Assembly: GCA_030593065.1 (NCBI GenBank)
Contig: JAUVHV010000002.1
Coordinates: 104,098 to 168,097, forward strand
Length of the DNA stretch: 64,000 nucleotides
Source of the DNA: Candidatus Omnitrophota bacterium
GTDB lineage: Bacteria > Omnitrophota > Gorgyraeia > JABMRG01
Reading direction: 5' to 3'
Shown here: in pieces, positions 384 through 32,836 of the stretch
Layout: each line of letters begins with the position of its first letter
How positions within the stretch are numbered: position 1 is the first letter of the stretch
Notes under the pieces: model-generated
Seen by the model: only the letters and a program-made list of their open reading frames with translations
Databases searched by the model: none
What the model was told of the DNA's origin: nothing
Translations under genes and position numbers: made by a program

Positions 384-1250
384 TTATATGCCTGAGGAAT
401 CTATAATCTCAGGCACAAGGCGCTCCCACCCTATCGGCATTATATGAACACCTCGGCAGAGCCCCTTAAGCTCGTTAATCATCCTAACAGCTATCTCAAT
501 CGATTTCTTCTGCTTATCTGAAGCGCTCTCTACCTCTTTTATTAACTTAGCGGGTACATATATACCCGCTACATTTTCGTTCATATACCTTGCCATTTTT
601 CCGGACTTAAGCAGTATAATACCCGCTATAATTGGAATATTATATTGTGTAACTTTAGTAATAAACTCTTTAAATCTTATTATATCAAATACACCCTGTG
701 TCTGGAAAAATTGTACCCCGCAAGCTATCTTCTTCTCCATCTTTATGAGCTCCGGTTCCAATGGGTCTGCACAGGGATTTACTACCGCTCCAACGCAGAA
801 TTCCGGTTTGCCTTTAAGCTTATTGCCTGAACTGTCTTTACCTTGCTGTAAAGTCTTTATAATCTCTAACAATTGTATGGAATCGAGATCGAATACCGGT
901 TTTGCCTGCGGATGATCTCCTTTCAAAGGATGATCCCCGGTCAAAGCCAGAATATTTTCTATGCCAAGACAGGCAGCTGAGAGAATATCTGATTGGAGCG
1001 CAAGCCTGTTTCTGTCACGGCATGTTATCTGGAAAATAGGATCTATGCCCATCTGTTTAAGAAGATAAGAACCTGCCAGAGACCCCAATCTCATAACAGC
1101 GCTCTGAAGGTCTGTAACATTAATCGCGTCCACTTTACCGATAAGCGGCTTTGCCGTATCAAGCATCTTTGTTATATCGGTTCCCTTCGGAGGGCCCACT
1201 TCGCTTGTTACTATGAACTTATTTGATCTTATAGCTTTTTTCAAATCCAT
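384..1250 (-). CDS. metF: 5,10-methylenetetrahydrofolate reductase (MetF-type)
   Basis: 288 aa with MTHFR TIM-barrel motifs (TSEVGPPKG near the N-terminus; DAINVTD). Co-located with an MTHFR C-terminal-domain protein, folD, fchA and fhs. Confidence 0.85.
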   Translation of the reverse strand: MDLKKAIRSNKFIVTSEVGPPKGTDITKMLDTAKPLIGKVDAINVTDLQSAVMRLGSLAGSYLLKQMGIDPIFQITCRDRNRLALQSDILSAACLGIENILALTGDHPLKGDHPQAKPVFDLDSIQLLEIIKTLQQGKDSSGNKLKGKPEFCVGAVVNPCADPLEPELIKMEKKIACGVQFFQTQGVFDIIRFKEFITKVTQYNIPIIAGIILLKSGKMARYMNENVAGIYVPAKLIKEVESASDKQKKSIEIAVRMINELKGLCRGVHIMPIGWERLVPEIIDSSGI

Positions 1251-1294
1251 TACGCCTGATCCCTTTTTTAAATACTATAATCTGATAAAATAAA

Positions 1295-1939
1295 CTACAA
1301 AATAATCTTCTGCGGCTTAAGTTGTTTTGAATAATCGAGCGGCTTATAGATCTTTCTCATATTGTCCAAATCCCCTGACTCTTTCAAGCTTTTATATATT
1401 AATATCCAGCCGCAATCTTTCTCTTTATCGACCTCACATTTCTCGTTCTTTGAACCACCGCATGGGCCATTGAGCAGGCCTTTCGAACAGACAGTCAAGG
1501 AGCATATTGTGCCTGTCCTGTCAATAATGCAATCACCACAAAGTATACATTTCTGTGTAAAATGGCCTGCGCGCTCTACCTCACCGAGAAACAGCGTCTC
1601 AAGCGCGGGTAAAACCCTTTCTGCCTTGGTGCCATCTTTTATAACCTGCGCACCGTCACCACAGGCTAAGACCAGTACTGCATCTGTCTGTTTGAACGTC
1701 TCCTTATTCTTATGAAAAAGCTGTTTTACCTTAACCAGGTGGCATGCAGGGTCAAGTATCGCCTTGCCTGTAATCTTTAAACCTTCCTTTCGCAGATCGC
1801 TCTCCATCTCATCAACCTGATCCTCACCTCCTGTTTTACAGACAGTCGCGCATTGAGCACATCCTATAAGAAATACTGTTTTGTTTCCTTTAAGTGAATT
1901 AAAAATCTGCTTACGCGATCTCTTCTCTGTTATTATCAT
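1295..1939 (-). CDS. metV: Methylene-THF reductase C-terminal-domain protein (MetV-like zinc-ribbon / FeS small subunit)
   Basis: 214 aa, Cys-rich (CAQCATVC, CGDC, CxxC clusters). Lies immediately upstream of metF, as in acetogen metVF pairs. Confidence 0.7.
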   Translation of the reverse strand: MIITEKRSRKQIFNSLKGNKTVFLIGCAQCATVCKTGGEDQVDEMESDLRKEGLKITGKAILDPACHLVKVKQLFHKNKETFKQTDAVLVLACGDGAQVIKDGTKAERVLPALETLFLGEVERAGHFTQKCILCGDCIIDRTGTICSLTVCSKGLLNGPCGGSKNEKCEVDKEKDCGWILIYKSLKESGDLDNMRKIYKPLDYSKQLKPQKIIL

Positions 1940-2802
1940 CTTACACCTTTCTGTTTCTGAAAAAGCTCAACACAGTTGCGCATCAATATAGTAGTAGTAA
2001 GCGGCCCAACGCCACCAGGCACAGGCGTAATATAAGATGCTCTCTCACTTGCCTTATCAAACTCTACATCACCTACAATCTTACCGTCGACCCTGTTAAT
2101 CCCTATATCTATTACAACGGCGTGTTCTTTTATCCATTCTCCTTTAATAATCTTTGGCTTTCCCACGGCAACGATAAGCACCTCCGCACGGCTTATATGT
2201 TCTATTAGGTTGCCTTTCTCACTGGTTGCAACATGGCATACAGTAACTGTCGCGAATTTATCCAAAAGAAGCATTGCGAGAGGTTTGCCAACTATACCGC
2301 TATGGCCTATTATGACTGCCTCTTTGCCATATAGATCAATACCACTAAGATTTATAAGCTCCATCGCGGCCGATGCTGTAGGCGGTACCACTTTGTAAGC
2401 GTTAAGCAGCAGCTTTCCCTTATTCTCAGGGCTGATACCCTCTACATCTTTATCCGATGATATAAATGACGTTATTTTTATAATATCAAACCCCTCGGGT
2501 AAAGGGGACTGCAGTATAATCCCATTAACACTTTTGTCCTTATTCAACTGAGTTATCTTCTCTATAAGATCCTGCTCTGAAATGCAGCCGGCAAGTTTAA
2601 CAAGCTCATAGTCCATATTAATGGTATTGGCGATTCTTTTCTGTGAATTAGTATAAACTGAAAAAGCGCCCCCCTCACCTATCTGCAAAGCTATCAACCT
2701 CGGGACAGAGCCGATTGAATGCTTTAAAAATTTTATCTTGTCTTTCAACTTGTGCTTTATTTCATCAGCTTTTTTACCGCCATCAAGTATTATTGCACCC
2801 AT
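1936..2802 (-). CDS. folD: Bifunctional methylene-THF dehydrogenase / methenyl-THF cyclohydrolase FolD (start probably the internal MGAIILDGG)
   Basis: Motifs GHSGIVGKPLAMLL and PVPGGVGPLTTTILMRN. ORF-track start 2841, but the FolD-typical N-terminus begins at M14 (2802), which removes the overlap with fchA. Confidence 0.9.
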   Translation of the reverse strand: MGAIILDGGKKADEIKHKLKDKIKFLKHSIGSVPRLIALQIGEGGAFSVYTNSQKRIANTINMDYELVKLAGCISEQDLIEKITQLNKDKSVNGIILQSPLPEGFDIIKITSFISSDKDVEGISPENKGKLLLNAYKVVPPTASAAMELINLSGIDLYGKEAVIIGHSGIVGKPLAMLLLDKFATVTVCHVATSEKGNLIEHISRAEVLIVAVGKPKIIKGEWIKEHAVVIDIGINRVDGKIVGDVEFDKASERASYITPVPGGVGPLTTTILMRNCVELFQKQKGVR

Positions 2803-2803
2803 C

Positions 2804-3415
2804 TTATGTATGCATCCTTTCCCGAGCTTTAGATAAAACATGCGTCTTAAGCTTCTTCATTTCACGGTGAAGGGCCCTGTACCTTTCTGTGTTATTGATA
2901 ACATATTTCTTGTCTCTTACACGTTCTAAGTTAATATTGATATTTGCCAGGGCTGATTCAAACGCGGCATCAAGTGTATATACTGCTACAATCACATCTG
3001 ATAATATATTTTTATTTCCGACATATGCCAGTTCAAGCGCGACTAGAGTTACTTTGTAAGCATAATTACAGACATTAGATGGCGGCGTTATGGCTCTTTT
3101 TAGAGCTGGCTGCTGACTAATAATATTATCCTTATATTTTTTAAGCGCACTTGACAAATTTTCATACGCCTTTATATCTTTATCAATAAGGTCTGTCAGC
3201 TTTTTTCTTATGTTTTCGGATTTTTTCAATGCCTTTTGAGACCTCTCTTTATATCCATTAAAACCTTTTCCAGCTAAGGTAAAATTAGCTACCATGCTTA
3301 AAAGTCCGCAACCTAATACTCCTAACAGGGCGGATGTACTTCCTCCGCCGGGAATAGGTGTCTTCGCGGCCAGTTGATCCGCATAATACCTCATACTCTT
3401 ATCTATAAATTTCAT
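2804..3415 (-). CDS. fchA: Methenyl-THF cyclohydrolase / formimidoyl-THF cyclodeaminase family protein (FchA-like)
   Basis: 203 aa with the PIPGGGSTSALLGVLG motif of the cyclodeaminase/cyclohydrolase family. Positioned between fhs and folD. Confidence 0.8.
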   Translation of the reverse strand: MKFIDKSMRYYADQLAAKTPIPGGGSTSALLGVLGCGLLSMVANFTLAGKGFNGYKERSQKALKKSENIRKKLTDLIDKDIKAYENLSSALKKYKDNIISQQPALKRAITPPSNVCNYAYKVTLVALELAYVGNKNILSDVIVAVYTLDAAFESALANININLERVRDKKYVINNTERYRALHREMKKLKTHVLSKARERMHT

Positions 3416-3435
3416 AATATTTTCTCCTTACATTC

Positions 3436-5043
3436 CTAAAACAACCCTTTAATCTTACCATGGTTATCAGCAGTAATGTTACATGCTGCCGGTTTTTTAG
3501 GCAGCCCCGGTAAAAGCAGTATGTCACCGCAGACAGGAACAATAAAACCTGCGCCTGAAAATATCCTTATCTGGTGTATATTCAATTTCCATTCCTCAGG
3601 CCTGCCTTTCAAAAGGTGGTTATCAGATAAAGAAAACTGTGTCTTAGCAATATTGACAGCAAGCCTGTTCAAGCCAAGATCCTCTATAACCTTGAGGTCT
3701 TTCTTTGCCTGCAGACTAAAATTTACCCCTTTCCCACCGTATATTCTGGTAGATATAAGCTCTATCTTGCCCTTTATACTTAATTCTTCATTATAGAGAA
3801 GCTTAAACCCGCATTCGCCTTTTTTAAGCTGGCGCATGCATCCTTCTGCCAACTCTATCGCACCGCAGCCTCCTCTAGCAACAGCATCCGATATATAGCT
3901 CTCCACCCCAAGCTCCTGGCAACAGGCCTTTATCTGTTTAAGAGCCTTAGGTGGATCATTGGGAAATTTGTTTATCGCAACTATGGGTTCTATACCGAAA
4001 CACCTTATTATATTGATATGCTTCTTAAGATTAGGCAACCCATGCAGCCTCATAGCTCTACGAGAGACAACTATAACCGCCAGTTCCGGCCTTAATCTGC
4101 CTTGCCGGCATACAACATTAAAAAATTTCTCCGCACCGAGATCAGCGCCAAAACCACTTTCCGTTATTACATAATCCGCTAGTTTCAATCCCATAAGTAT
4201 TGACATAAGGCTATTTGCGCCATGGGCAATATTTGCGAAAGGCCCGCAATGAACAAAGGCGGGATTACCTTCTATCGTCTGGACAAGATTGGGCATAATA
4301 GCGTTAACCAGAAGCGCGCTCATTGAGCCAACAGCATTTAAGGTTTTAGGCGTAACAGGTTTCTTCTTCTTTGTAAAAGCAACTATCATACGTGAAAGCC
4401 TGTTTTGCAGATCCGCTATATTTCTGCTTAAGGCGAGGATTGCCATTGTTTCGGATGCGGCTATAATATCAAAGCCGCTCTCATAAGAAACTTTTTTGTC
4501 GATATTAAAACGTATCTTCCGAAGTGTCCTGTCACTTATATCTATGGTTCGCCGCAATAGTATATTGTTTATATCAATATTGAGCTTGTTATTAAAATAG
4601 ATACTGCTATCGAGCATGGCGCAAAGTAGGTTATTCGCTCCGGATACCGCATAACTATCACCTGTAAAATGGAGATTTATATCCTCCATTGGTATCACCT
4701 GGGAATATCCTCCGCCACAGGCGCCGCCCTTGATACCAAACATAGGCCCCAGTGAAGGTTCACGTAAACAGAGAAAAGCTTTTCTCTTCAATCTTCCGAA
4801 TGCCTGTGCCAGGCCTATAGCGGTCGAGGTCTTTCCTTCTCCATGTTTTGTAGGTGTTATAGAAGTGACAAGTATAAGTTTTCCATCGGGCTTGCTTTTT
4901 AATCTTGAGAGAAGTGAAGGGGATACTTTAGCTATATGGTTACCGTAAGGTATAAGTTCTTCATTCTTTATACCTGCGGATTTTGCTACCTCAGTTATCT
5001 GCTTCGGCTTTACACGCTGAGCTATCTCTATATCAGAAAGCAT
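3436..5043 (-). CDS. fhs: Formate--tetrahydrofolate ligase
   Basis: 535 aa; TPTKHGEGKTSTAIGL P-loop region; full-length FTHFS architecture. Confidence 0.92.
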   Translation of the reverse strand: MLSDIEIAQRVKPKQITEVAKSAGIKNEELIPYGNHIAKVSPSLLSRLKSKPDGKLILVTSITPTKHGEGKTSTAIGLAQAFGRLKRKAFLCLREPSLGPMFGIKGGACGGGYSQVIPMEDINLHFTGDSYAVSGANNLLCAMLDSSIYFNNKLNIDINNILLRRTIDISDRTLRKIRFNIDKKVSYESGFDIIAASETMAILALSRNIADLQNRLSRMIVAFTKKKKPVTPKTLNAVGSMSALLVNAIMPNLVQTIEGNPAFVHCGPFANIAHGANSLMSILMGLKLADYVITESGFGADLGAEKFFNVVCRQGRLRPELAVIVVSRRAMRLHGLPNLKKHINIIRCFGIEPIVAINKFPNDPPKALKQIKACCQELGVESYISDAVARGGCGAIELAEGCMRQLKKGECGFKLLYNEELSIKGKIELISTRIYGGKGVNFSLQAKKDLKVIEDLGLNRLAVNIAKTQFSLSDNHLLKGRPEEWKLNIHQIRIFSGAGFIVPVCGDILLLPGLPKKPAACNITADNHGKIKGLF

Positions 5044-17343: not shown

Positions 17344-17955
17344 CTAATGCTTACTGTAATCTCCTAGAGACCTTTTGAGGTCATTCGATATCTCATGCAT
17401 CTTAGAGATAAGTAAATTTATCTTCATCGCGTCTACAGGCTGTTTTTGAAGCTCTTGCTCAATAGTATTTAACAAATCATCCATAGCCTTTGTATGCCCT
17501 ATATTTTTTTGCGCCGTTTCTCTTAAATTTCGTATTACCATATTCAGAGAACCTGCCAAACTTTGAAGCTCATCACTTTTTCTTAAAGTTATCTCTGAAG
17601 TAAGGTCTCCTTCCGCTATCTTCCTCAATATAGCCTCCATCCTATACCATGGCCCCGCAATACGATGGGAGATTATAATACTAAACCATGCTGCAAAAGG
17701 TATTATAACAATTGCGGAAGAGAGAGCTTTTATATTCGCTATTCGCAAAATTGTGATAAGCCTGCCCTGTGGGTAAACATTCGCCAGCATCTTGGAAAGA
17801 TAAGGAAAGACCGCTAAGTATGTTATAATGCTTGATATACCAACTGTCAATAATATAAATAACGATATAATAAAAGCATACCGGAATTGAAAGGCTCTCT
17901 TTATAAGATAAGTTCTTCTCGGCACAACAGCCATCCCTATACTTCCTTTCTCCAT
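17344..17955 (-). CDS. HAMP domain-containing membrane protein (no output domain)
   Basis: 203 aa; two TM segments then a HAMP-like stretch (IAEGDLTSEITLRKSDELQSLAGSLNMVIRNL). The start may be the internal Met at 17934. Confidence 0.5.
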   Translation of the reverse strand: MEKGSIGMAVVPRRTYLIKRAFQFRYAFIISLFILLTVGISSIITYLAVFPYLSKMLANVYPQGRLITILRIANIKALSSAIVIIPFAAWFSIIISHRIAGPWYRMEAILRKIAEGDLTSEITLRKSDELQSLAGSLNMVIRNLRETAQKNIGHTKAMDDLLNTIEQELQKQPVDAMKINLLISKMHEISNDLKRSLGDYSKH

Positions 17956-18911
17956 AAAGCCAAATCTCTTGCTATATCAAGGTTAACGCTGCCCCTCAAA
18001 AGAGAATTAGATATCTTATTTTTTACACTATTAAAAGGGGTATAACGTACCGGAGCCCCATCAATATGAGTGATAATATCCCCTTCCATAAGGCCGCTAC
18101 GTACTCCCACAGAATTACGCTTCAGCGCTGCAACCACCAACCCGCCTTCCTGCATCTTTAGTGACAAACCAATATTATCAAGGCCTTTATCCTGCTTACC
18201 CGACGCAGGAATTGTTACCATTCTCTTTATGTTCAAAATAATCTCCGGCGAAGAACTTTCCATAATCATGTCCATTATCGTGTCAAGTGCAAGATAGCCG
18301 GTCAACTTTCCCCATATAGAGATGATTATATCGCCTTTTCTTATGCCGGATTCTTCTGCCGCGGAAAAAGGCGTAACCTTTACAATCTTTGGCATACCCT
18401 TATCTGAAGCGAGAACTAATCCCGTCGCTTTTTTAAAACGTTCTTCTTCTGTAATGGTGGTTTTTTTGACTTTTGGATTATAGAGTCTTCCTGATTCCTT
18501 AAAGAGCGCCTGCTTTCTCGCCATGTCATCTTTAAACTGCTTCTCAGGATTCCTTAAAAGTGTTGAACGCATATAAATAAATTTATCTTTCGCTTCCTTG
18601 TAATCCGGGTTAAGCTCATACGCCTTCTTATAATAGGTGTATGCCTTTGCTAAATTTCCATTCCGCTGGTAATAATCCCCAAGCTTTACCAGATTCTGTT
18701 CTTTCCTATCATAAAGAATATCTTTTATATCAGATTTATCAAAGTGTTTTTCACCATAAATAGTGCTTAAGACAATGCTCTGGTAATAATTTTCCACTAC
18801 AATACCTTTTACCTTACTGCCGTCTTTTAGGCATACCGTGTCCGCAACTGTTGTAAATTGAAACAGTAAAACCGAACAGATAATTAATAGAAAAAAAATA
18901 AATAGTTTCAT
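17937..18911 (-). CDS. Secreted TPR + tandem PDZ domain protein
   Basis: 324 aa; signal peptide; TPR-like YYKKAYELNPDY; two PDZ-like segments (GIRKGDIIISIWG; GLMEGDIITHIDG). Confidence 0.55.
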   Translation of the reverse strand: MKLFIFFLLIICSVLLFQFTTVADTVCLKDGSKVKGIVVENYYQSIVLSTIYGEKHFDKSDIKDILYDRKEQNLVKLGDYYQRNGNLAKAYTYYKKAYELNPDYKEAKDKFIYMRSTLLRNPEKQFKDDMARKQALFKESGRLYNPKVKKTTITEEERFKKATGLVLASDKGMPKIVKVTPFSAAEESGIRKGDIIISIWGKLTGYLALDTIMDMIMESSSPEIILNIKRMVTIPASGKQDKGLDNIGLSLKMQEGGLVVAALKRNSVGVRSGLMEGDIITHIDGAPVRYTPFNSVKNKISNSLLRGSVNLDIARDLALWRKEV

Positions 18912-19244
18912 CTATCTAATAGACTTTAATATTAAATATATAAGAAATGTTATCGTGCCAGCTGATATAAAATAAAAATCATTAAAATAGAAAAAATCTT
19001 TTATGTTTGATAAAAAAGTATCTGAATATCCCTGCTCCTCAGGCCTGTTTTTCTTAACATCCATTCTAACGCAGCCCCCATATTTACCTCTCAAGGAAAA
19101 TATATTCTCCTCCTTAAACCTGAGGTATATTCCACCAATATGATACGCGGGAATCTTACCCTTATTGGCAAGATCGCGTACCTCTTTTTCAGAGAGCCTA
19201 AGGCACTCCGCCGCCTCTTTAAGAGTTAAAAGCTTATCCGACAT
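18912..19244 (-). CDS. Excisionase-family HTH (HTH_17-like) DNA-binding protein with a C-terminal TM segment
   Basis: 110 aa; LLTLKEAAECLRLSEKEVRDLANKGKIPAYHIGG matches excisionase/MerR-superfamily HTH; hydrophobic C-terminus. Confidence 0.55.
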   Translation of the reverse strand: MSDKLLTLKEAAECLRLSEKEVRDLANKGKIPAYHIGGIYLRFKEENIFSLRGKYGGCVRMDVKKNRPEEQGYSDTFLSNIKDFFYFNDFYFISAGTITFLIYLILKSIR

Positions 19245-19250
19245 GGCCTG

Positions 19251-19805
19251 TTATTTGCTGACCCTCTCTTTTGCTATCCAGCTGTCTATCTCCTCTTTGT
19301 GAAATTTCCATGCATTATTCTCTTTTATTGCCGGGATCTTTTTCTGCGCAGCCCATTCTTTTACAAGCGAGGTATCTACTTCAAGATAACGCGCGACCTC
19401 ATCAATGGCCATTACCTTAGAATTACCGGATGTTATGGTCTGTTCTGATAAAGAAGACATTTTACAATTTCCATTGAGAATTGCGCCATCTGACACAGTA
19501 AGCATAGGAGTTACTATATCACCTATGATATTTGCGGGAGCAATAAGATTGAGCCTTTTGGTTGCTATGATATTGCCGGTAACCTTTCCAGCTATAGTAA
19601 TATTCTCACCATTTATATCAGCCATTACATGGGCATTCTCTCCTATAATAAGATTTCCTTTTGTATCGAGCTTGCCTTCAAATTCACCATTTATTCTAAG
19701 GTCTACAGGATCCTTAAATATCATCGTTCCCTGCATTGTCGCATTTATATCTAATACTTTCTCTACTGGCTGATCATCTTTTTTCGGCCTTCTTAAACTT
19801 ACCAT
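19251..19805 (-). CDS. Bactofilin domain protein fused to a C-terminal excisionase-family HTH
   Basis: 184 aa; bactofilin beta-helix repeats (INGEFEGKL...IGENAHVMADINGENITIAGKVTGNIIATKRLNLIAPANIIGDIV), then MAIDEVARYLEVDTSLVKEWAAQKKIPAIK, an HTH_17-like segment paralogous to the neighbouring gene. Confidence 0.65.
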   Translation of the reverse strand: MVSLRRPKKDDQPVEKVLDINATMQGTMIFKDPVDLRINGEFEGKLDTKGNLIIGENAHVMADINGENITIAGKVTGNIIATKRLNLIAPANIIGDIVTPMLTVSDGAILNGNCKMSSLSEQTITSGNSKVMAIDEVARYLEVDTSLVKEWAAQKKIPAIKENNAWKFHKEEIDSWIAKERVSK

Positions 19806-19867
19806 ATCGCCTCTCCTTTCCTTACCCTGCTTTTTAAGGGTATACGCGGTTAACTTTTCCTACTTAT

Positions 19868-20302
19868 TCATTTCTTGCGGCTTACCTTATCATGTACCTT
19901 ACTCAAAACTAAAAGGCTTGCCAATATAAGTACAGTTGCAAATGCTGATACAATAAAAAGTCCTGAACCCACTGCCAGGCCGATACCCGCTATAGACCAT
20001 AAACTGGCAGCTGTTGTCAGGCCTACTATTGAAACACGGGACCTTATAATAGTACCTGCTCCGAGAAAACCGATTCCGCTTACAACCTGAGCAGCTATTC
20101 TGCCTGGATCCGCATCCGCAATGCCTTTATAAATATCAAATATATGCATTGAGGTAAGCATTATAACACATGAACCAATGCAGACTAATATATGCGTTCT
20201 AAAGCCCGCTGCTTTTTCATGAACCTCTCTTTCTATACCAACTACCCCCCCTAAAAAAGCGGCATATATAAGTCTTATTATCATTTGCACCTCTGTAAGC
20301 AC
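19868..20302 (-). CDS. MgtC/SapB family membrane protein
   Basis: 144 aa; IEREVHEKAAGFRTHILVCIGSCVIM ... GIGFLGAGTIIR, typical of MgtC. Confidence 0.8.
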   Translation of the reverse strand: MLTEVQMIIRLIYAAFLGGVVGIEREVHEKAAGFRTHILVCIGSCVIMLTSMHIFDIYKGIADADPGRIAAQVVSGIGFLGAGTIIRSRVSIVGLTTAASLWSIAGIGLAVGSGLFIVSAFATVLILASLLVLSKVHDKVSRKK

Positions 20303-30916: not shown

Positions 30917-32836
30917 TTATGAGCTGACTGGAAGTTTCCTTCCGGCTTTATGTTCGTTTATGGTGTTTCGCAAGAGCCTGCAATAGAGGTCAAATCCTAC
31001 AGCGGCAATATATCCATGCTGTTGGGTCCCTAATATATTGCCGGCACCCCTTATCTGAAGGTCTTCCATAGCTATCTTAAAACCTGAACCCAGTTCTGTA
31101 AAACGTCCTACAGCCTTGAGCCTTCTCTTTGCGTCTCCTGCAAGCGGGTAATTCTTTGGCACCAGGCATATCGCGTAAGCTTTTATATTAAACCTGCCTA
31201 CCCTGCCTCTAAGCTGATAAAGATCTGCTAAACCAAACCTATCCGCGTGATTTATAATAATAGTATTTGCATTCGGTATATCTATACCTGATTCGATAAT
31301 AGTTGTAGAGACCAAGACATCTATTTCACCTTTTATAAACTGGAGCATTATCTTTTCAAGCTCTTTAGCCGGAATCTTACCGTGGGCAACAGAGATACGT
31401 ACACTCTCTCCCATAAGCGCCTTTAGTCCTAACACGATCTTCTCTATCCCCTTAATCCTATTATTCACAAAAAAGACCTGGCCTCGCCTTTTAAGCTCAC
31501 GCTCAATAGCTTCTTTAATCAGCTTATCGTTATATGAACTTATAATAGTCTTGATAGGAAGCCTGTCAAGGGGTGGTGTGTTGATTGCGGACATATCTCT
31601 TGCACCGGTAAGCGACATGTATAGCGTACGCGGTATAGGTGTAGCTGTCATTGTAAGGACATCTATAAGAAGCCTGATCTTTTTCAATTTCTCTTTTGCC
31701 TTTACGCCAAAACGCTGTTCCTCATCTATAATTACGAGCCCGAGATCCTTAAATACTATATCATCCGACAAAAGCCTGTGTGTTCCTATTACAATATCGA
31801 CAGAACCCTCTTTCAACCCCTTCAAAACCTCTTTCTGTTCAGATTTTGTCTTAAAACGTGAAAGCATCTGTATATTTACAGGAAACTCCTTCATTCTTTC
31901 GCAAAATGTATTATAATGCTGTTCCGCCAATATAGTAGTAGGAACTAATATACCAACCTGCTTGTTATCCATTACAGCCTTGAATGCGGACCTTAAAGCA
32001 ACTTCCGTCTTACCATAACCTACGTCACCACATAAGAGCCTATCCATAGGCTTTGGCTTTTCCATATCAGAGATTACGTCAGAAACGGCCTTTGCCTGAT
32101 CGATCGTATCTCTATAAGGAAAACTTTCTTCCAGTTTATATTGCCAATCAGTATTTTTGGAGAAAGCAAAACCCTTGAGTTTCATTCGATCTGCCTGCAT
32201 CTGAAGCAGTTCCATTGCATAAGAGGCTGCTATCTTCTTGGTCTTCTGTTTTAATCTTTTCCAGGAACCTGTTCCCAGCTTGCTCAGTCTTGGAACACAC
32301 TTATAAAAACTTAAATATTTTTGTATAAGATTTATCTCCCCGACAGGCAAATACAACTTATCTCTATCCGCGTACTCGATTAGAATATAATCTTTCTCAT
32401 GGCCACTCTTTTCCTTTATTTTCTTTATGCCTTTGTATATACCTATACCATAATCAATATGTACGACTAAATCGCTAATCATTATATCAACAAAGTTATC
32501 TATAGGCACCTCTTCTCCCATACCGTGAAATATAGCGGGCTTGGCAGAAGAGTGTAATGTTTTTCTTGGAAGTATTATTACCATCTGGTGGACAGAAGTA
32601 ATCTCAGAAGTGACCAGGCTAAAAGATCGTATAGAATGAACCTTATCCTGAAAAAGCTCTAATCGCACAGGAGACTCAAAGCCGCTGGGAAAGATATCGA
32701 TAATCCCTCCCCTGTGCGCAAAGTCTCCTTCCTGCGCTACAAAATCTGTTATCTTATAACCCAGCAGGATTAAATCTTTAAGAAGCGGTTCTTTCTCCTG
32801 GTTTTGATTGGTATAAAGCTTGGCCGATTTAAACAT
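30917..32836 (-). CDS. mfd: Transcription-repair coupling factor (Mfd) homolog; short form lacking the N-terminal UvrB-homology region (D1a/D2 side) and the C-terminal D7
   Basis: 639 aa. Contains RGGIIDIFP...RLELF (UvrB-like motif), a CarD/TRCF RNAP-interaction domain (VVHIDYGIGIYKG...KLYLPVGEINL), SF2 helicase motifs (GDVGYGKTEVALR; DEEQRFGV; TATPIPRTL; QLRGRVGR) and a TRG region. Only 45 bp separate it from argS. Confidence 0.75.
   Translation of the reverse strand: MFKSAKLYTNQNQEKEPLLKDLILLGYKITDFVAQEGDFAHRGGIIDIFPSGFESPVRLELFQDKVHSIRSFSLVTSEITSVHQMVIILPRKTLHSSAKPAIFHGMGEEVPIDNFVDIMISDLVVHIDYGIGIYKGIKKIKEKSGHEKDYILIEYADRDKLYLPVGEINLIQKYLSFYKCVPRLSKLGTGSWKRLKQKTKKIAASYAMELLQMQADRMKLKGFAFSKNTDWQYKLEESFPYRDTIDQAKAVSDVISDMEKPKPMDRLLCGDVGYGKTEVALRSAFKAVMDNKQVGILVPTTILAEQHYNTFCERMKEFPVNIQMLSRFKTKSEQKEVLKGLKEGSVDIVIGTHRLLSDDIVFKDLGLVIIDEEQRFGVKAKEKLKKIRLLIDVLTMTATPIPRTLYMSLTGARDMSAINTPPLDRLPIKTIISSYNDKLIKEAIERELKRRGQVFFVNNRIKGIEKIVLGLKALMGESVRISVAHGKIPAKELEKIMLQFIKGEIDVLVSTTIIESGIDIPNANTIIINHADRFGLADLYQLRGRVGRFNIKAYAICLVPKNYPLAGDAKRRLKAVGRFTELGSGFKIAMEDLQIRGAGNILGTQQHGYIAAVGFDLYCRLLRNTINEHKAGRKLPVSS

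Follow-up and report, generated by a model that had tools for sequence, protein, structure and literature searches.

Bactofilins are widespread, mechanistically thin scaffolds, and the known examples contact their clients either by short peptides or by way of separate adaptors. Canonical members, including BacA of Caulobacter, TtBac, and CcmA, comprise a full PF04519 beta-helix core with a hydrophobic polymerization residue and short disordered termini, and attach to the membrane via an N-terminal MFSK-type peptide or an N-terminal transmembrane segment, without any folded accessory domain (PMC12448750). The MFSK-type sequence is typical of bactofilins, although not universal (PMC12448750). 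In Myxococcus xanthus, a BacNOP bactofilin polymer provides the platform on which DNA-bound complexes are positioned, and organizes ParB/ParA (PMC5703909); the link to DNA is indirect, via PadC, which has a ParB-like CTPase fold, and ParB-parS. In Bacillus subtilis, the helix-turn-helix (HTH) protein BacR (YhbD, DUF4004) is encoded beside the bactofilins BacE and BacF in the order HTH-bac-bac; this soluble protein binds the bactofilins and is recruited to the membrane, and bactofilin turns off its DNA binding (PMC13649987). RacA of B. subtilis (PDB 5i41/5i44) and pSK1 Par (8csh) combine a MerR-like winged helix, a flexible linker, and a self-associating domain, and tether DNA to a landmark; RacA anchors the chromosome in this way (PMC4914108), by means of a coiled coil that binds DivIVA, and its conserved Lys15 and Arg19 read GC-rich ram sites. 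BldC of Streptomyces (PDB 6ama/6amk) is a transcription factor of 68 aa that consists of a stand-alone MerR-type winged helix with no coiled coil; it is free, being neither polymer-fused nor membrane-anchored, and forms head-to-tail multimers along DNA. BldC, RacA, pSK1 Par, Xis, and RdfS are all architectural DNA binders that oligomerize on DNA. The substitutions R30A in BldC and R19A in RacA abolish DNA binding (PMC5859096, PMC4914108).

The locus described here lies in a 64,000-nucleotide stretch of DNA (the window) from a Candidatus Omnitrophota bacterium, in which a bactofilin fused to a winged helix (Bac-HTH) is followed by a gene for a predicted tail-anchored winged-helix protein (the partner; Table 1). 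Distinctive of this system are a folded domain of DNA-binding type on each bactofilin subunit and an obligatory membrane-anchored partner with the same fold. The fusion is encoded by at least 528 species-level genomes, and all of the named ones belong to Omnitrophota; 510 homologues of Bac-HTH were found, the best 120 of which all carry both domains. The architecture is thus common within one phylum, although it is annotated with generic names only ("polymer-forming cytoskeletal protein" and "excisionase family DNA binding protein"), and a literature search found no paper on the bactofilin-winged-helix family. Within this uncultured phylum, Bac-HTH and its partner form a conserved pair of core genes that is as yet unstudied. 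A relative of the Bac-HTH bactofilin clade carries a fused ParA-type ATPase.

Table 1. Features of the Bac-HTH/partner locus and its immediate neighbors (positions refer to the window).
Feature	Position	Strand	Description and basis
TPR + 2x PDZ exported protein	17937..18911	(-)	Start abuts partner stop; Pfam; context
Partner gene	18912..19244	(-)	110 aa + stop; predicted tail-anchored winged-helix membrane protein; ORF, HTH_17
C-terminal transmembrane helix	18915..18980	(-)	aa 89-110; conserved S94, I98, Y103, I105, K107
Juxtamembrane helix	18981..19022	(-)	aa 75-88; AF2 helix 75-87, kink at N88
Partner linker	19023..19079	(-)	aa 56-74; disordered, variable; pLDDT <50 at 60-73
Partner winged helix	19080..19244	(-)	aa 1-55; AF2, Foldseek, profile vs PDB, columns
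Spacer, Bac-HTH stop to partner start	19245..19250	(-)	6 nt; both ORFs share frame
Bac-HTH gene	19251..19805	(-)	184 aa + TAA stop; bactofilin fused to winged helix; ORF + Pfam
BldC/RacA-like MerR-type winged helix	19254..19412	(-)	aa 132-184; HTH_17, Foldseek, column statistics
Ser/Thr-rich flexible linker	19413..19457	(-)	aa 117-131; pLDDT <50 at 120-128
Bactofilin beta-helix core	19458..19757	(-)	aa 17-116; first two windings nearly invariant
Bac-HTH N-terminal tail	19758..19805	(-)	aa 1-16, MVSLRRPKKDDQPVEK; basic, disordered; pLDDT <50
Intergenic region upstream of Bac-HTH	19806..19867	(-)	Short; Shine-Dalgarno-like AAGGAAAGGAGAGG
MgtC-family membrane protein	19868..20302	(-)	Pfam MgtC E 1.7e-40; context

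The original prediction had read Bac-HTH as a bactofilin core followed by an HTH_17-like domain and had proposed an HMM check with DUF583 and HTH_17. Both domains scored above their cut-offs, and the C-terminal segment passed the HTH models. The Pfam Bactofilin model (PF04519) matched residues 18-115 (E 1e-23, 83.8 bits, cut-off 27.9) over positions 3-98 of its 98, that is, over the whole bactofilin model, and HTH_17 (PF12728) matched residues 134-180 (E 1.3e-10, 41.8 bits, cut-off 27). In the AF2 model (pLDDT 78.9), a beta-helix (residues 17-111) is followed by a disordered linker (120-128) and then the winged helix. The core (pLDDT 82-93) resembled BacA (2n3d, TMt 0.82 at rmsd 2.0 Å) and TtBac (6rib, TMt 0.75) in Foldseek. 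L110 occupies the polymerization-interface position, aligned with BacA F130 and TtBac F105, and its column is hydrophobic in 138/138 sequences (L84, F29, I19, M3, V3). Bac-HTH is like the canonical bactofilins in its core, and would polymerize through it. In contrast to them, the family has a basic N-terminal tail without Phe2, in addition to the folded C-terminal winged helix. The tails read M-x-x-(L/I)-R-R or are M-R/K-rich, with A, R, Q, L, or P as residue 2 and a mean net charge of +2.3 over the first 10 aa, and no canonical MFSK-type membrane-targeting sequence was found among the family tails inspected. The linker between core and winged helix has a median length of 15 aa across the family (range 5-22) and is enriched in S, T, and K.

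The partner was likewise found to be what had been predicted from its reading frame, an HTH domain with a C-terminal transmembrane helix. HTH_17 matched residues 5-45 (E 1.8e-10, 41.3 bits, cut-off 27), and a homology search recovered 106 homologues. The AF2 model placed a C-terminal helix at residues 89-109 with a pLDDT of about 90, and 19-aa Kyte-Doolittle maxima at this helix ranged from 1.6 to 3.2 among homologues. A near-invariant motif, DFFYFNDFY (residues 83-91), begins in the juxtamembrane helix with DFFYFN and runs into the transmembrane segment; D83, Y86, F87, N88, D89, F90, and Y91 are invariant (alignment A4). The linker differs in length among homologues by about 20-60 aa. The partner contains neither a sensor nor a periplasmic domain, and in homologues the protein stops 1-4 residues past the anchor helix.

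Both proteins display the winged-helix topology alpha1-alpha2-beta1-beta2-alpha3 in the AF2 secondary structure; in Bac-HTH the helices span residues 134-141, 145-153, and 170-183, and the strands 160-162 and 165-169. The nearest solved structures for both are BldC, RacA, pSK1 Par, Xis, and RdfS, and BldC is the best match of both (TMt up to 0.86, rmsd 1.1-1.8 Å, 22-30% identity). The Foldseek values against BldC were TMt 0.74-0.80 at rmsd 1.4-1.8 Å for Bac-HTH, which also retrieved RacA, RdfS, and Xis, and TMt 0.84-0.86 at rmsd 1.1-1.5 Å with 29-30% identity for the partner; RacA was a Foldseek neighbor of both. Scores against the BldC family model (NCBIfam NF033787) were only 13.8 and 16 bits (cut-off 77), so the fold alone is shared. 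A PDB search with the single Bac-HTH winged-helix sequence gave no match; RacA surfaced in the profile search as the best PDB match, at an E value of 0.066 that is not statistically significant. The partner profile matched Xis gp37 (4.7e-5) and BldC (6e-4) in the PDB.

The original prediction had described the two HTHs as paralogous, on the basis of a common K(K/G)KIPA string. The string is indeed present, as QKKIPA at residues 154-159 of Bac-HTH and KGKIPA at residues 28-33 of the partner, and the profile-profile alignment of the two domains reached an hhalign probability of 97.9%, consistent with the same BldC-like fold. However, HMM scores across the two families were 21 and 14 bits, weaker than the 41-42 bits to generic HTH_17, so a recent, specific paralogy is not supported. 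Conservation in the two domains is complementary. Bac-HTH has an invariant "head" (L141, V143, and W151, corresponding to BldC F21, V23, and W31), whereas the invariant residues of the partner lie in the wing and "tail" (Y34, G37, G38, and R42, corresponding to BldC I40, L43, G44, and R48).

A DNA-tethering module had also been proposed originally, and the BldC/RacA-like folds are in keeping with it. On the other hand, the base-reading Arg and Lys of the known proteins are lost. E150 of Bac-HTH occupies the position of the essential BldC R30/RacA R19, S146 that of BldC K26/RacA K15, and E142 that of BldC R22. In the R30/R19 column, 138 sequences show E, D, S, G, N, or Q, and neither K nor R occurs. 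The recognition-helix face is acidic (E142, D144, and E150) and the wing basic (K156, K161, K167, and K170), with K/R167 kept in 124/138 sequences; the mean net charge of the domain is -3.2, whereas that of the aligned BldC segment is about +5. Because the domain is acidic and has Glu or Asp at the essential base-reading Arg position, DNA binding by the Bac-HTH winged helix is not assured as judged from its residues. The partner domain is about neutral (net charge -0.55) and its recognition-helix positions are variable, so no conserved sequence specificity is evident there either, although R42 is present in all 177 partner sequences.

These substitutions bear on the main alternative, in which DNA plays no part, and which is possible but somewhat doubtful. 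The winged helices would have been exapted as interaction domains of a protein-protein adaptor: the cytoplasmic domain of the partner would dock on the acidic winged helix or the beta-helix, and the scaffold would position another client, for instance envelope or cell-wall enzymes, like most characterized bactofilins. Bactofilins usually have bitopic membrane proteins as clients (PMC12448750), and BacR binds BacE/F apparently near its HTH and loses DNA binding in the process (PMC13649987). The DNA-facing surface of Bac-HTH is conserved and acidic with its base-reading Arg/Lys lost, and the head of Bac-HTH and the wing and tail of the partner are conserved in a complementary manner, both of which favor an adaptor; furthermore, the protein-binding MerR-like winged helices CbpM (3ucs) and DafA (9dvi) are among the structural neighbors in Foldseek. 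However, the basic residues of the wing and the Gly-Gly turn for DNA docking have been conserved, and the variable gene neighborhood yields no identifiable client. The large majority of HTH_17/MerR-type winged helices bind DNA, and a recognition-helix Glu can still read cytosine, as does Glu181 of CRP, which also counts against a role confined to proteins.

The pairing of the two genes, part of the original prediction, proved to be phylum-wide. The partner lies directly downstream of Bac-HTH in the same orientation in 78/78 related loci with room downstream, and such adjacency is far beyond chance. The pair sits in a housekeeping run (gatA-gatB-ctpA-yibQ-tsaD-mgtC, the pair, and, further along, polA) that is syntenic across Omnitrophota in 80 genomes. 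Since the flanking synteny, e.g., gatA-gatB-ctpA-tsaD, is also long and conserved, gene order alone does not prove a functional link, and the two proteins could be independent neighbors inherited together in small, slowly rearranging genomes. This is very improbable, given that the pair is the sole linkage that is never broken while its flanks vary: MgtC is directly upstream in 57/74 loci, which makes it frequent but not obligatory, TPR-PDZ/HAMP genes are directly downstream in only 16/70 and are thus lineage-specific, and elsewhere larBC, exbBD, acpS, greA, or secretion ATPases are inserted directly after the partner. In other loci, a segment of about 2 kb between the pair and the TPR-PDZ/HAMP genes is presumably larB-larC, as recognized from its sequence. 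Moreover, the two genes are tightly spaced or overlapping among loci, and both hold the same rare BldC-like domain.

Pfam supported the identities first given to the neighbors, i.e., MgtC, a TPR protein with two PDZ domains, and a HAMP-only protein, a TM-HAMP protein with no output domain. Their interpretation as an envelope-sensing island was not borne out in view of the housekeeping synteny and the infrequent TPR-PDZ/HAMP linkage. A palindrome shared by the upstream regions of both genes, which had been suggested as well, is not applicable because only 6 nt separate the two genes, which belong to a single operon. The repeat scan revealed no meaningful palindromes or operator-like repeats near either gene, the promoter and terminator scan gave nothing above shuffled expectation and no convincing promoter or operator upstream of Bac-HTH, and the promoter scan of the locus found no separate promoter.

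The same observations weigh on a BacR-type regulatory switch, in which the partner, the bactofilin-borne domain, or both would be transcription factors and the polymer or membrane state would sequester or free the HTH; targets could include their own operon or envelope genes. ToxR and CadC exemplify the known class of membrane-tethered HTH regulators. BacR, an HTH protein whose gene accompanies those of bactofilins, provides a precedent in that it is recruited to the membrane and switched in its DNA binding, and in the lineage of the window the PDZ/TPR and HAMP genes follow the pair with abutting or overlapping reading frames. A switch is nevertheless improbable, for the partner has no sensor or periplasmic domain, the recognition helices are variable (partner) or acidic (Bac-HTH) and suggest no conserved operator, neither operator-like repeats nor a separate promoter was detected near the genes, and the PDZ/HAMP linkage is sporadic. 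In addition, the DUF4004 model of BacR found no match in either protein at E values up to 1 in the Pfam search.

A mobile-element origin was considered because of name-level matches. TIGR01764 ("excise") scored above its cut-off of 28.8 bits with both Bac-HTH (32.3 bits) and the partner (31.1 bits), PHROG excisionase families matched at E 1e-7, NCBIfam MADS1 gave 56.1 and 33.1 bits, and PADLOC mad1 matched at an E value of about 1e-6, at the domain level only. An excisionase, a recombination directionality factor, or a MADS-type anti-phage HTH fused to a bactofilin is nonetheless effectively refuted. The MADS1 (NF047737) scores fall short of the cut-off of 80 bits, and the vicinity holds no further MADS genes; it also lacks integrase genes, att repeats, and phage genes, and the housekeeping position is the same in 80 genomes.

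The explanation tentatively preferred is a bactofilin scaffold that is anchored to the membrane and weakly tethers DNA by means of its arrayed winged helices. The co-transcribed genes would form a two-component scaffold module of the Omnitrophota core genome. Bac-HTH would polymerize via its beta-helix core, with a winged helix attached to each subunit by a flexible linker about 15 residues long, and the partner would be a tail-anchored inner-membrane protein with its own BldC-type winged helix facing the cytoplasm. The partner is proposed to fix the filament to the membrane, the usual MFSK membrane-targeting peptide being absent from the bactofilin. Contact may be BldC-like and head-to-tail, with the invariant L141, V143, and W151 of Bac-HTH against the likewise invariant L5/L6, Y34, I36, G37, and G38 of the partner. 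A strictly BldC-like contact is disfavored by one detail, the replacement of the R22-E16' salt bridge by a repulsive E142-E10 pair. The winged-helix array might then retain DNA at the membrane by numerous weak, mostly sequence-independent wing and backbone contacts, the avidity of the polymer substituting for per-domain affinity. There is precedent for cooperative binding by peptides of low affinity when bactofilin polymers display them in arrays (PMC12448750). The retention of basic wing residues, K/R167 and R42 in particular, is suggestive of such contacts. The pair probably connects the scaffold with the membrane and may connect it with DNA as well. Whereas the domains, the predicted folds, the conservation, the strict linkage of the genes, and their phylum-wide occurrence are observed, polymerization, membrane insertion, contact between the two proteins, and DNA binding are inferred, DNA binding least securely. 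The occurrence in so many genomes and the housekeeping context fit a basic cell-biological role.

The result would be a chromosome or nucleoid tether similar to RacA or pSK1 Par on a bactofilin base. The likeness to RacA is one of functional analogy only. Self-association here would rely on the bactofilin beta-helix rather than on a coiled coil, which is absent, the domain order is reversed, and a dedicated transmembrane partner would take the place of DivIVA. Unlike in the Myxococcus system, the bactofilin polypeptide itself carries the fold of DNA-binding type, and no ParB-like domain is present. Unlike BacR, which is a separate, soluble polypeptide, one HTH is fused to the bactofilin and the second is borne by a tail-anchored partner.

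Bac-HTH and the partner are small (184 and 110 aa) and their expression should be straightforward, so the question can be tested directly, with no need for a culture of the organism. In addition, the pair marks Omnitrophota contigs cleanly for phylogenetic purposes and can flag MAG contigs that are likely mis-binned or mislabelled. In its most specific form, which is speculative and rather unlikely, the interpretation is that a bactofilin filament with one winged helix per subunit, clamped by a tail-anchored partner, acts as a minimal, nucleotide-independent tether of the nucleoid or chromosome to the membrane (a "bactofilin kinetochore"), or else that the winged helix has been turned into a head-to-tail protein "handshake". 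The handshake, if true, would be a previously unknown, third mode of bactofilin membrane attachment, and an adaptor without DNA would be a clear re-purposing of the winged helix for protein-protein coupling and a new way of fixing a polymer to the membrane. If the DNA tether is true, Bac-HTH would be the first bactofilin to contact DNA directly, with a bearing on chromosome organization and segregation in ultra-small, uncultured PVC bacteria.

Bac-HTH (a bactofilin core with a C-terminal winged helix) and its partner (a winged helix with a C-terminal transmembrane helix, encoded directly 3' of it) were recovered by ORF calling and Pfam with the positions and domain types of the original prediction. 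The Pfam Bactofilin domain of Bac-HTH covered the full model at aa 18-115 (E 1e-23; 83.8 bits, with a gathering threshold of 27.9), and HTH_17 matched aa 134-180 (E 1.3e-10; 41.8 bits against 27); the cut-off of TIGR01764, "excisionase family DNA-binding," was also exceeded. The AlphaFold2 model (32-sequence alignment, mean pLDDT 78.9) contained a disordered basic tail (aa 1-14), a beta-helix (aa 17-111, pLDDT 82-93), a disordered linker (aa 120-128), and a winged helix (H134-141, H145-153, E160-162, E165-169, H170-183). The linker was rich in Ser and Thr (median length 15 aa), and core windings 1-2 (aa 16-55) were near-invariant phylum-wide. Foldseek against the PDB matched the core to BacA (2n3d, TMt 0.82) and TtBac (6rib, 0.75). 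Residue L110, hydrophobic in 138/138 sequences, aligned with the polymerisation-critical F130 of BacA and F105 of TtBac; BacA F130R is polymerisation-deficient (PMC12448750), and the TtBac F105R mutant has been crystallised (PDB 6ria). Profile, predicted fold, and interface residue all agreed on bactofilin membership, as did profile and predicted fold on HTH_17 membership. Across the family, the N-terminal tails averaged +2.3 in net charge over their first 10 residues and lacked Phe2, a residue of the canonical MFSK-type membrane-targeting sequence (PMC12448750).

Coordinates of the gene pair and other features of the window
Feature	Position	Strand	Description
Bac-HTH	19251-19805	-	184 aa; bactofilin core, C-terminal winged helix
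Partner	18912-19244	-	110 aa; winged helix, C-terminal transmembrane helix
Bac-HTH/partner junction	19245-19253		Bac-HTH stop TAA and partner ATG in frame, two codons between (CAG GCC)
Partner motif D83-F-F-Y-F-N-D-F-Y91	18972-18998		helix-kink-helix junction
TPR-PDZ-PDZ gene	17937-18911	-	begins on the base directly following partner stop codon
TM-HAMP gene	17344-17955	-	overlaps TPR-PDZ-PDZ gene by 19 nt
Mfd-like ORF	30917-32836	-	639 aa; UvrB-interaction, CarD/TRCF RID, DEAD, Helicase_C
Folate-dependent C1 cluster	384-5043		MTHFR, its C-terminal-domain protein, FolD-type dehydrogenase/cyclohydrolase, FTCD_C, formate-THF ligase
Other housekeeping genes			RNase HII, TrmD-type tRNA methyltransferase, PrmC-type methyltransferase, RF-1, Rho, CoaE, starch/glycogen-synthase-type glycosyltransferase, rRNA adenine dimethylase, PdxA, SurA-type proteins, Mfd-like helicase, arginyl-tRNA synthetase

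The partner carried HTH_17 at aa 5-45 (E 1.8e-10) and a hydrophobic helix at its C-terminal end. Its AlphaFold2 model (pLDDT 74.8) comprised a winged helix (aa 5-55), a disordered segment (aa 56-74), and a helix (aa 75-87) that continued beyond a kink at N88 into a second helix (aa 89-109, pLDDT about 90). The membrane helix is followed by no more than a few residues, from which we infer a tail-anchored partner whose winged helix faces the cytoplasm. Column counts over 177 homologues, complemented by alignment A4 of partner homologues, showed that Y34, G37, G38, and R42 of the wing were invariant and that E10, L15, and E19 were conserved, and linker length differed by about 20-60 aa. The DFFYFNDFY motif was near-invariant in the 177 homologues, and the membrane helix had a conserved face (S94, I98, Y103, I105, and K107). 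As judged from these alignments, such conservation is far above the needs of a passive anchor.

ORFs were called in 80 related loci, which were then searched with the proteins of the window. In 78/78 loci with room downstream, the next gene after Bac-HTH, on the same strand, was the partner; mgtC was directly upstream in 57/74, and tsaD was located within 1.2 kb upstream in 53/68. The order gatA-gatB-ctpA-(yibQ)-tsaD-(mgtC)-pair-...-polA recurs phylum-wide. Pfam identified the neighbours that had been listed for the window, namely MgtC, a protein with TPR and two PDZ domains, and a TM-HAMP protein without an output domain. The reading of these genes as an island did not hold: TPR-PDZ directly followed the pair in only 16 of 70 loci (farther downstream in 14 more), and Bac-HTH and its partner instead belong, as a pair in housekeeping surroundings, to the conserved core genes of Omnitrophota. 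That the two proteins function independently and merely inherited their synteny seems improbable. The rest of the window (G+C 39.8%) consisted of housekeeping genes, and the minus strand carried nearly every ORF of 150 aa or longer. Identity as an excisionase of a mobile element or as a MADS defence protein is exceedingly improbable; both are effectively excluded by this genomic context and by scores under the cut-offs. Membership tests for BldC, MADS1 (an anti-phage HTH), DUF4004/BacR, a genuine excisionase, and RacA failed.

Elsewhere, the genes after the partner, as we would name them from their sequences, are larB-larC, exbB-exbD, acpS, greA, or secretion ATPases. Two genes (~247 and ~390 aa) were inserted as a pair between partner and TPR-PDZ in many Omnitrophota (L010, L015, L016, L025, L033, L038, L049, L052, L054, L061, L064, L069, L079, and others), and from sequence these are presumably larB and larC (nickel-pincer cofactor synthesis). 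C-terminal peptides are the ligands of PDZ domains; the partner C-terminus would be periplasmic, and a lineage-specific contact between PDZ protein and partner is conceivable. Read-through of the single stop codon at the Bac-HTH/partner junction would yield a Bac-HTH-HTH-TM fusion; this in-frame arrangement is probably incidental because spacing and overlap differ in other loci. The Mfd-like ORF is shorter than expected of a transcription-repair coupling factor and had no Pfam match at E ≤1e-6 after Helicase_C (aa 442-550); truncation or splitting of the gene is possible.

Among 5.8 billion proteins searched, 510 relatives of Bac-HTH were found, and all of the best 120 contained both Pfam domains. 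The named relatives were from Candidatus Omnitrophota/Omnitrophica, a phylum placed in the PVC group by NCBI. The 106 relatives of the partner included many on contigs of equal size to those with Bac-HTH matches. Scanning one genome per GTDB species identified 528 genomes that encode a Bac-HTH relative; the best 80, which were the ones inspected, were Omnitrophota MAGs/SAGs or entries that bulk submitters had named "uncultured Planctomycetia" or "uncultured bacterium." When 1.84 billion cluster representatives were scanned exhaustively with HMMER, 12,654 matched at the bactofilin level, of which only 21, mostly full-length fusions, reached an E of 1e-30 or better; by this measure the fusions thus form a compact clade. 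Records with the name "Dehalococcoidia bacterium" or "uncultured Planctomycetia bacterium" also contained close homologues of the two genes (57-85% identity; P0017, P0151, loci L001-L005, and others). Because the distribution is otherwise exclusively Omnitrophota, these are probably mislabelled or mis-binned contigs, for which the gene pair could act as a marker.

The K(K/G)KIPA string was indeed common to Bac-HTH and its partner. Their HTHs, predicted to be paralogous, represent one type of domain (hhalign probability 97.9%, 29% identity), whereas a recent duplication was not demonstrated, as cross-family HMM scores (21 and 14 bits) were below the generic HTH_17 score of each domain. The Bac-HTH winged helix resembled BldC (6ama/6amk; TMt 0.74-0.80, rmsd 1.4-1.8 Å), and Foldseek also matched RacA (5i44), RdfS, Pukovnik Xis, pSK1 Par, MerR-family regulators, and the protein-binding MerR-like CbpM (3ucs) and DafA (9dvi). 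The partner was closer to BldC (TMt 0.84-0.86, rmsd 1.1-1.5 Å, 29-30% identity). Profile searches of the PDB gave RacA (E 0.066) and BldC (E 0.11) for Bac-HTH, and Xis gp37 (4.7e-5), BldC (6e-4), and Tn916 Xis for the partner.

Gap-free alignment at the invariant Trp (BldC TVTRWAKAGKL, RacA TVQRWVKQLNL, Bac-HTH SLVKEWAAQKKI) allowed known contacts to be mapped onto Bac-HTH. BldC reads bases with Lys26 and Arg30 (R30A abolishes binding), contacts phosphates through Thr27, Thr29, and Lys33, and enters the minor groove with His46, Arg47, and Arg48 (PMC5859096); R19A abolishes binding by RacA (PMC4914108). At the BldC-Arg30/RacA-Arg19 position, Bac-HTH had Glu in 106, Asp in 10, Ser in 8, Gly in 4, Asn in 3, and Gln in 3 of 138 sequences and a basic residue in none; the base-reading Lys was mostly Ser, and the BldC Arg22 position was Glu in 130/138. 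The mean net charge of its winged helix was -3.2, versus about +5 for the aligned BldC segment, and wing-side basic residues (K156, K/R161, K/R167, and K/R170) were kept. In the partner (mean net charge -0.55), R42 (BldC R48) and the Gly-Gly including G38 (BldC G44, where G44E abolishes DNA binding) were invariant, and recognition-helix positions were variable (R30 position: Arg 46, Lys 35, Asp 31, Glu 22; n = 177). Because base-reading residues are lost or variable and the charges are negative, DNA binding by either winged helix should not be presumed; any binding would probably be wing- and backbone-mediated, weak, and without conserved sequence specificity.

In BldC, a head (F21, V23, and W31) packs against a tail (L11', I40', T42', L43', and G44') (PMC5859096). 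Bac-HTH had an invariant BldC-like head (L141, V143, and W151) with a polar wing one residue shorter (E162, N163, and N164), and the partner had an invariant BldC-like tail (L5/L6, Y34, I36, G37, and G38). This complementarity suggests a directional contact from Bac-HTH (head) to partner (tail), although the BldC R22-E16' salt bridge would become E142-E10. We tentatively favor a membrane-anchored bactofilin scaffold in which the partner would provide the anchor missing from the bactofilin N-terminus, and winged helices arrayed on the polymer would tether DNA through avidity. Weak ligands on bactofilin polymers bind cooperatively, as established for the membrane-targeting peptide (PMC12448750). 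The main alternative, only somewhat less likely, is that the winged helices are protein-protein adaptors and DNA is uninvolved, for which the acidic face of Bac-HTH, the head/tail conservation, CbpM and DafA among the structural neighbours, and the precedent of BacR, the DUF4004 HTH protein of B. subtilis, all argue: bactofilins bind that protein, apparently near its HTH, draw it to the membrane, and inhibit its binding to DNA (PMC13649987). A regulatory switch of the BacR type is unlikely. The proposed DNA-tethering scaffold resembles RacA and pSK1 Par in joining a winged helix, a linker, and a self-associating domain, and it is also analogous to the Myxococcus bactofilin-PadC-ParB platform (PMC5703909).

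The same clade-specific bactofilin N-terminus (…INSSMQGRLAFKDPVLLRIS…) occurred outside the window in P0346, a 468-aa protein with a C-terminal ParA/MinD-type ATPase (AAA_31, E 2.5e-51; also CbiA and MipZ). This fusion hints at a Rosetta-stone link of the bactofilin clade to DNA or cargo positioning. Fusions of related bactofilins to PilZ (P0265) and to a 3D cell-wall domain (P0298) were seen as well.

Relatives carry generic database names ("polymer-forming cytoskeletal protein" or "excisionase family DNA binding protein"). Full-text searches for bactofilin with excisionase found zero papers, those for bactofilin with Omnitrophota found nothing relevant by title and abstract, and "FtsZ," "MreB," and "cytoskelet" were absent from the main Omnitrophota genomics paper; the fusion family is thus visible in databases yet uncharacterised. 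Bactofilins are already known as modular platforms, hence the system would not shock a specialist. What we consider new is the fusion of a winged helix to a bactofilin scaffold, together with an obligatory partner that is probably tail-anchored; the system is clean, phylum-wide, and easy to test.
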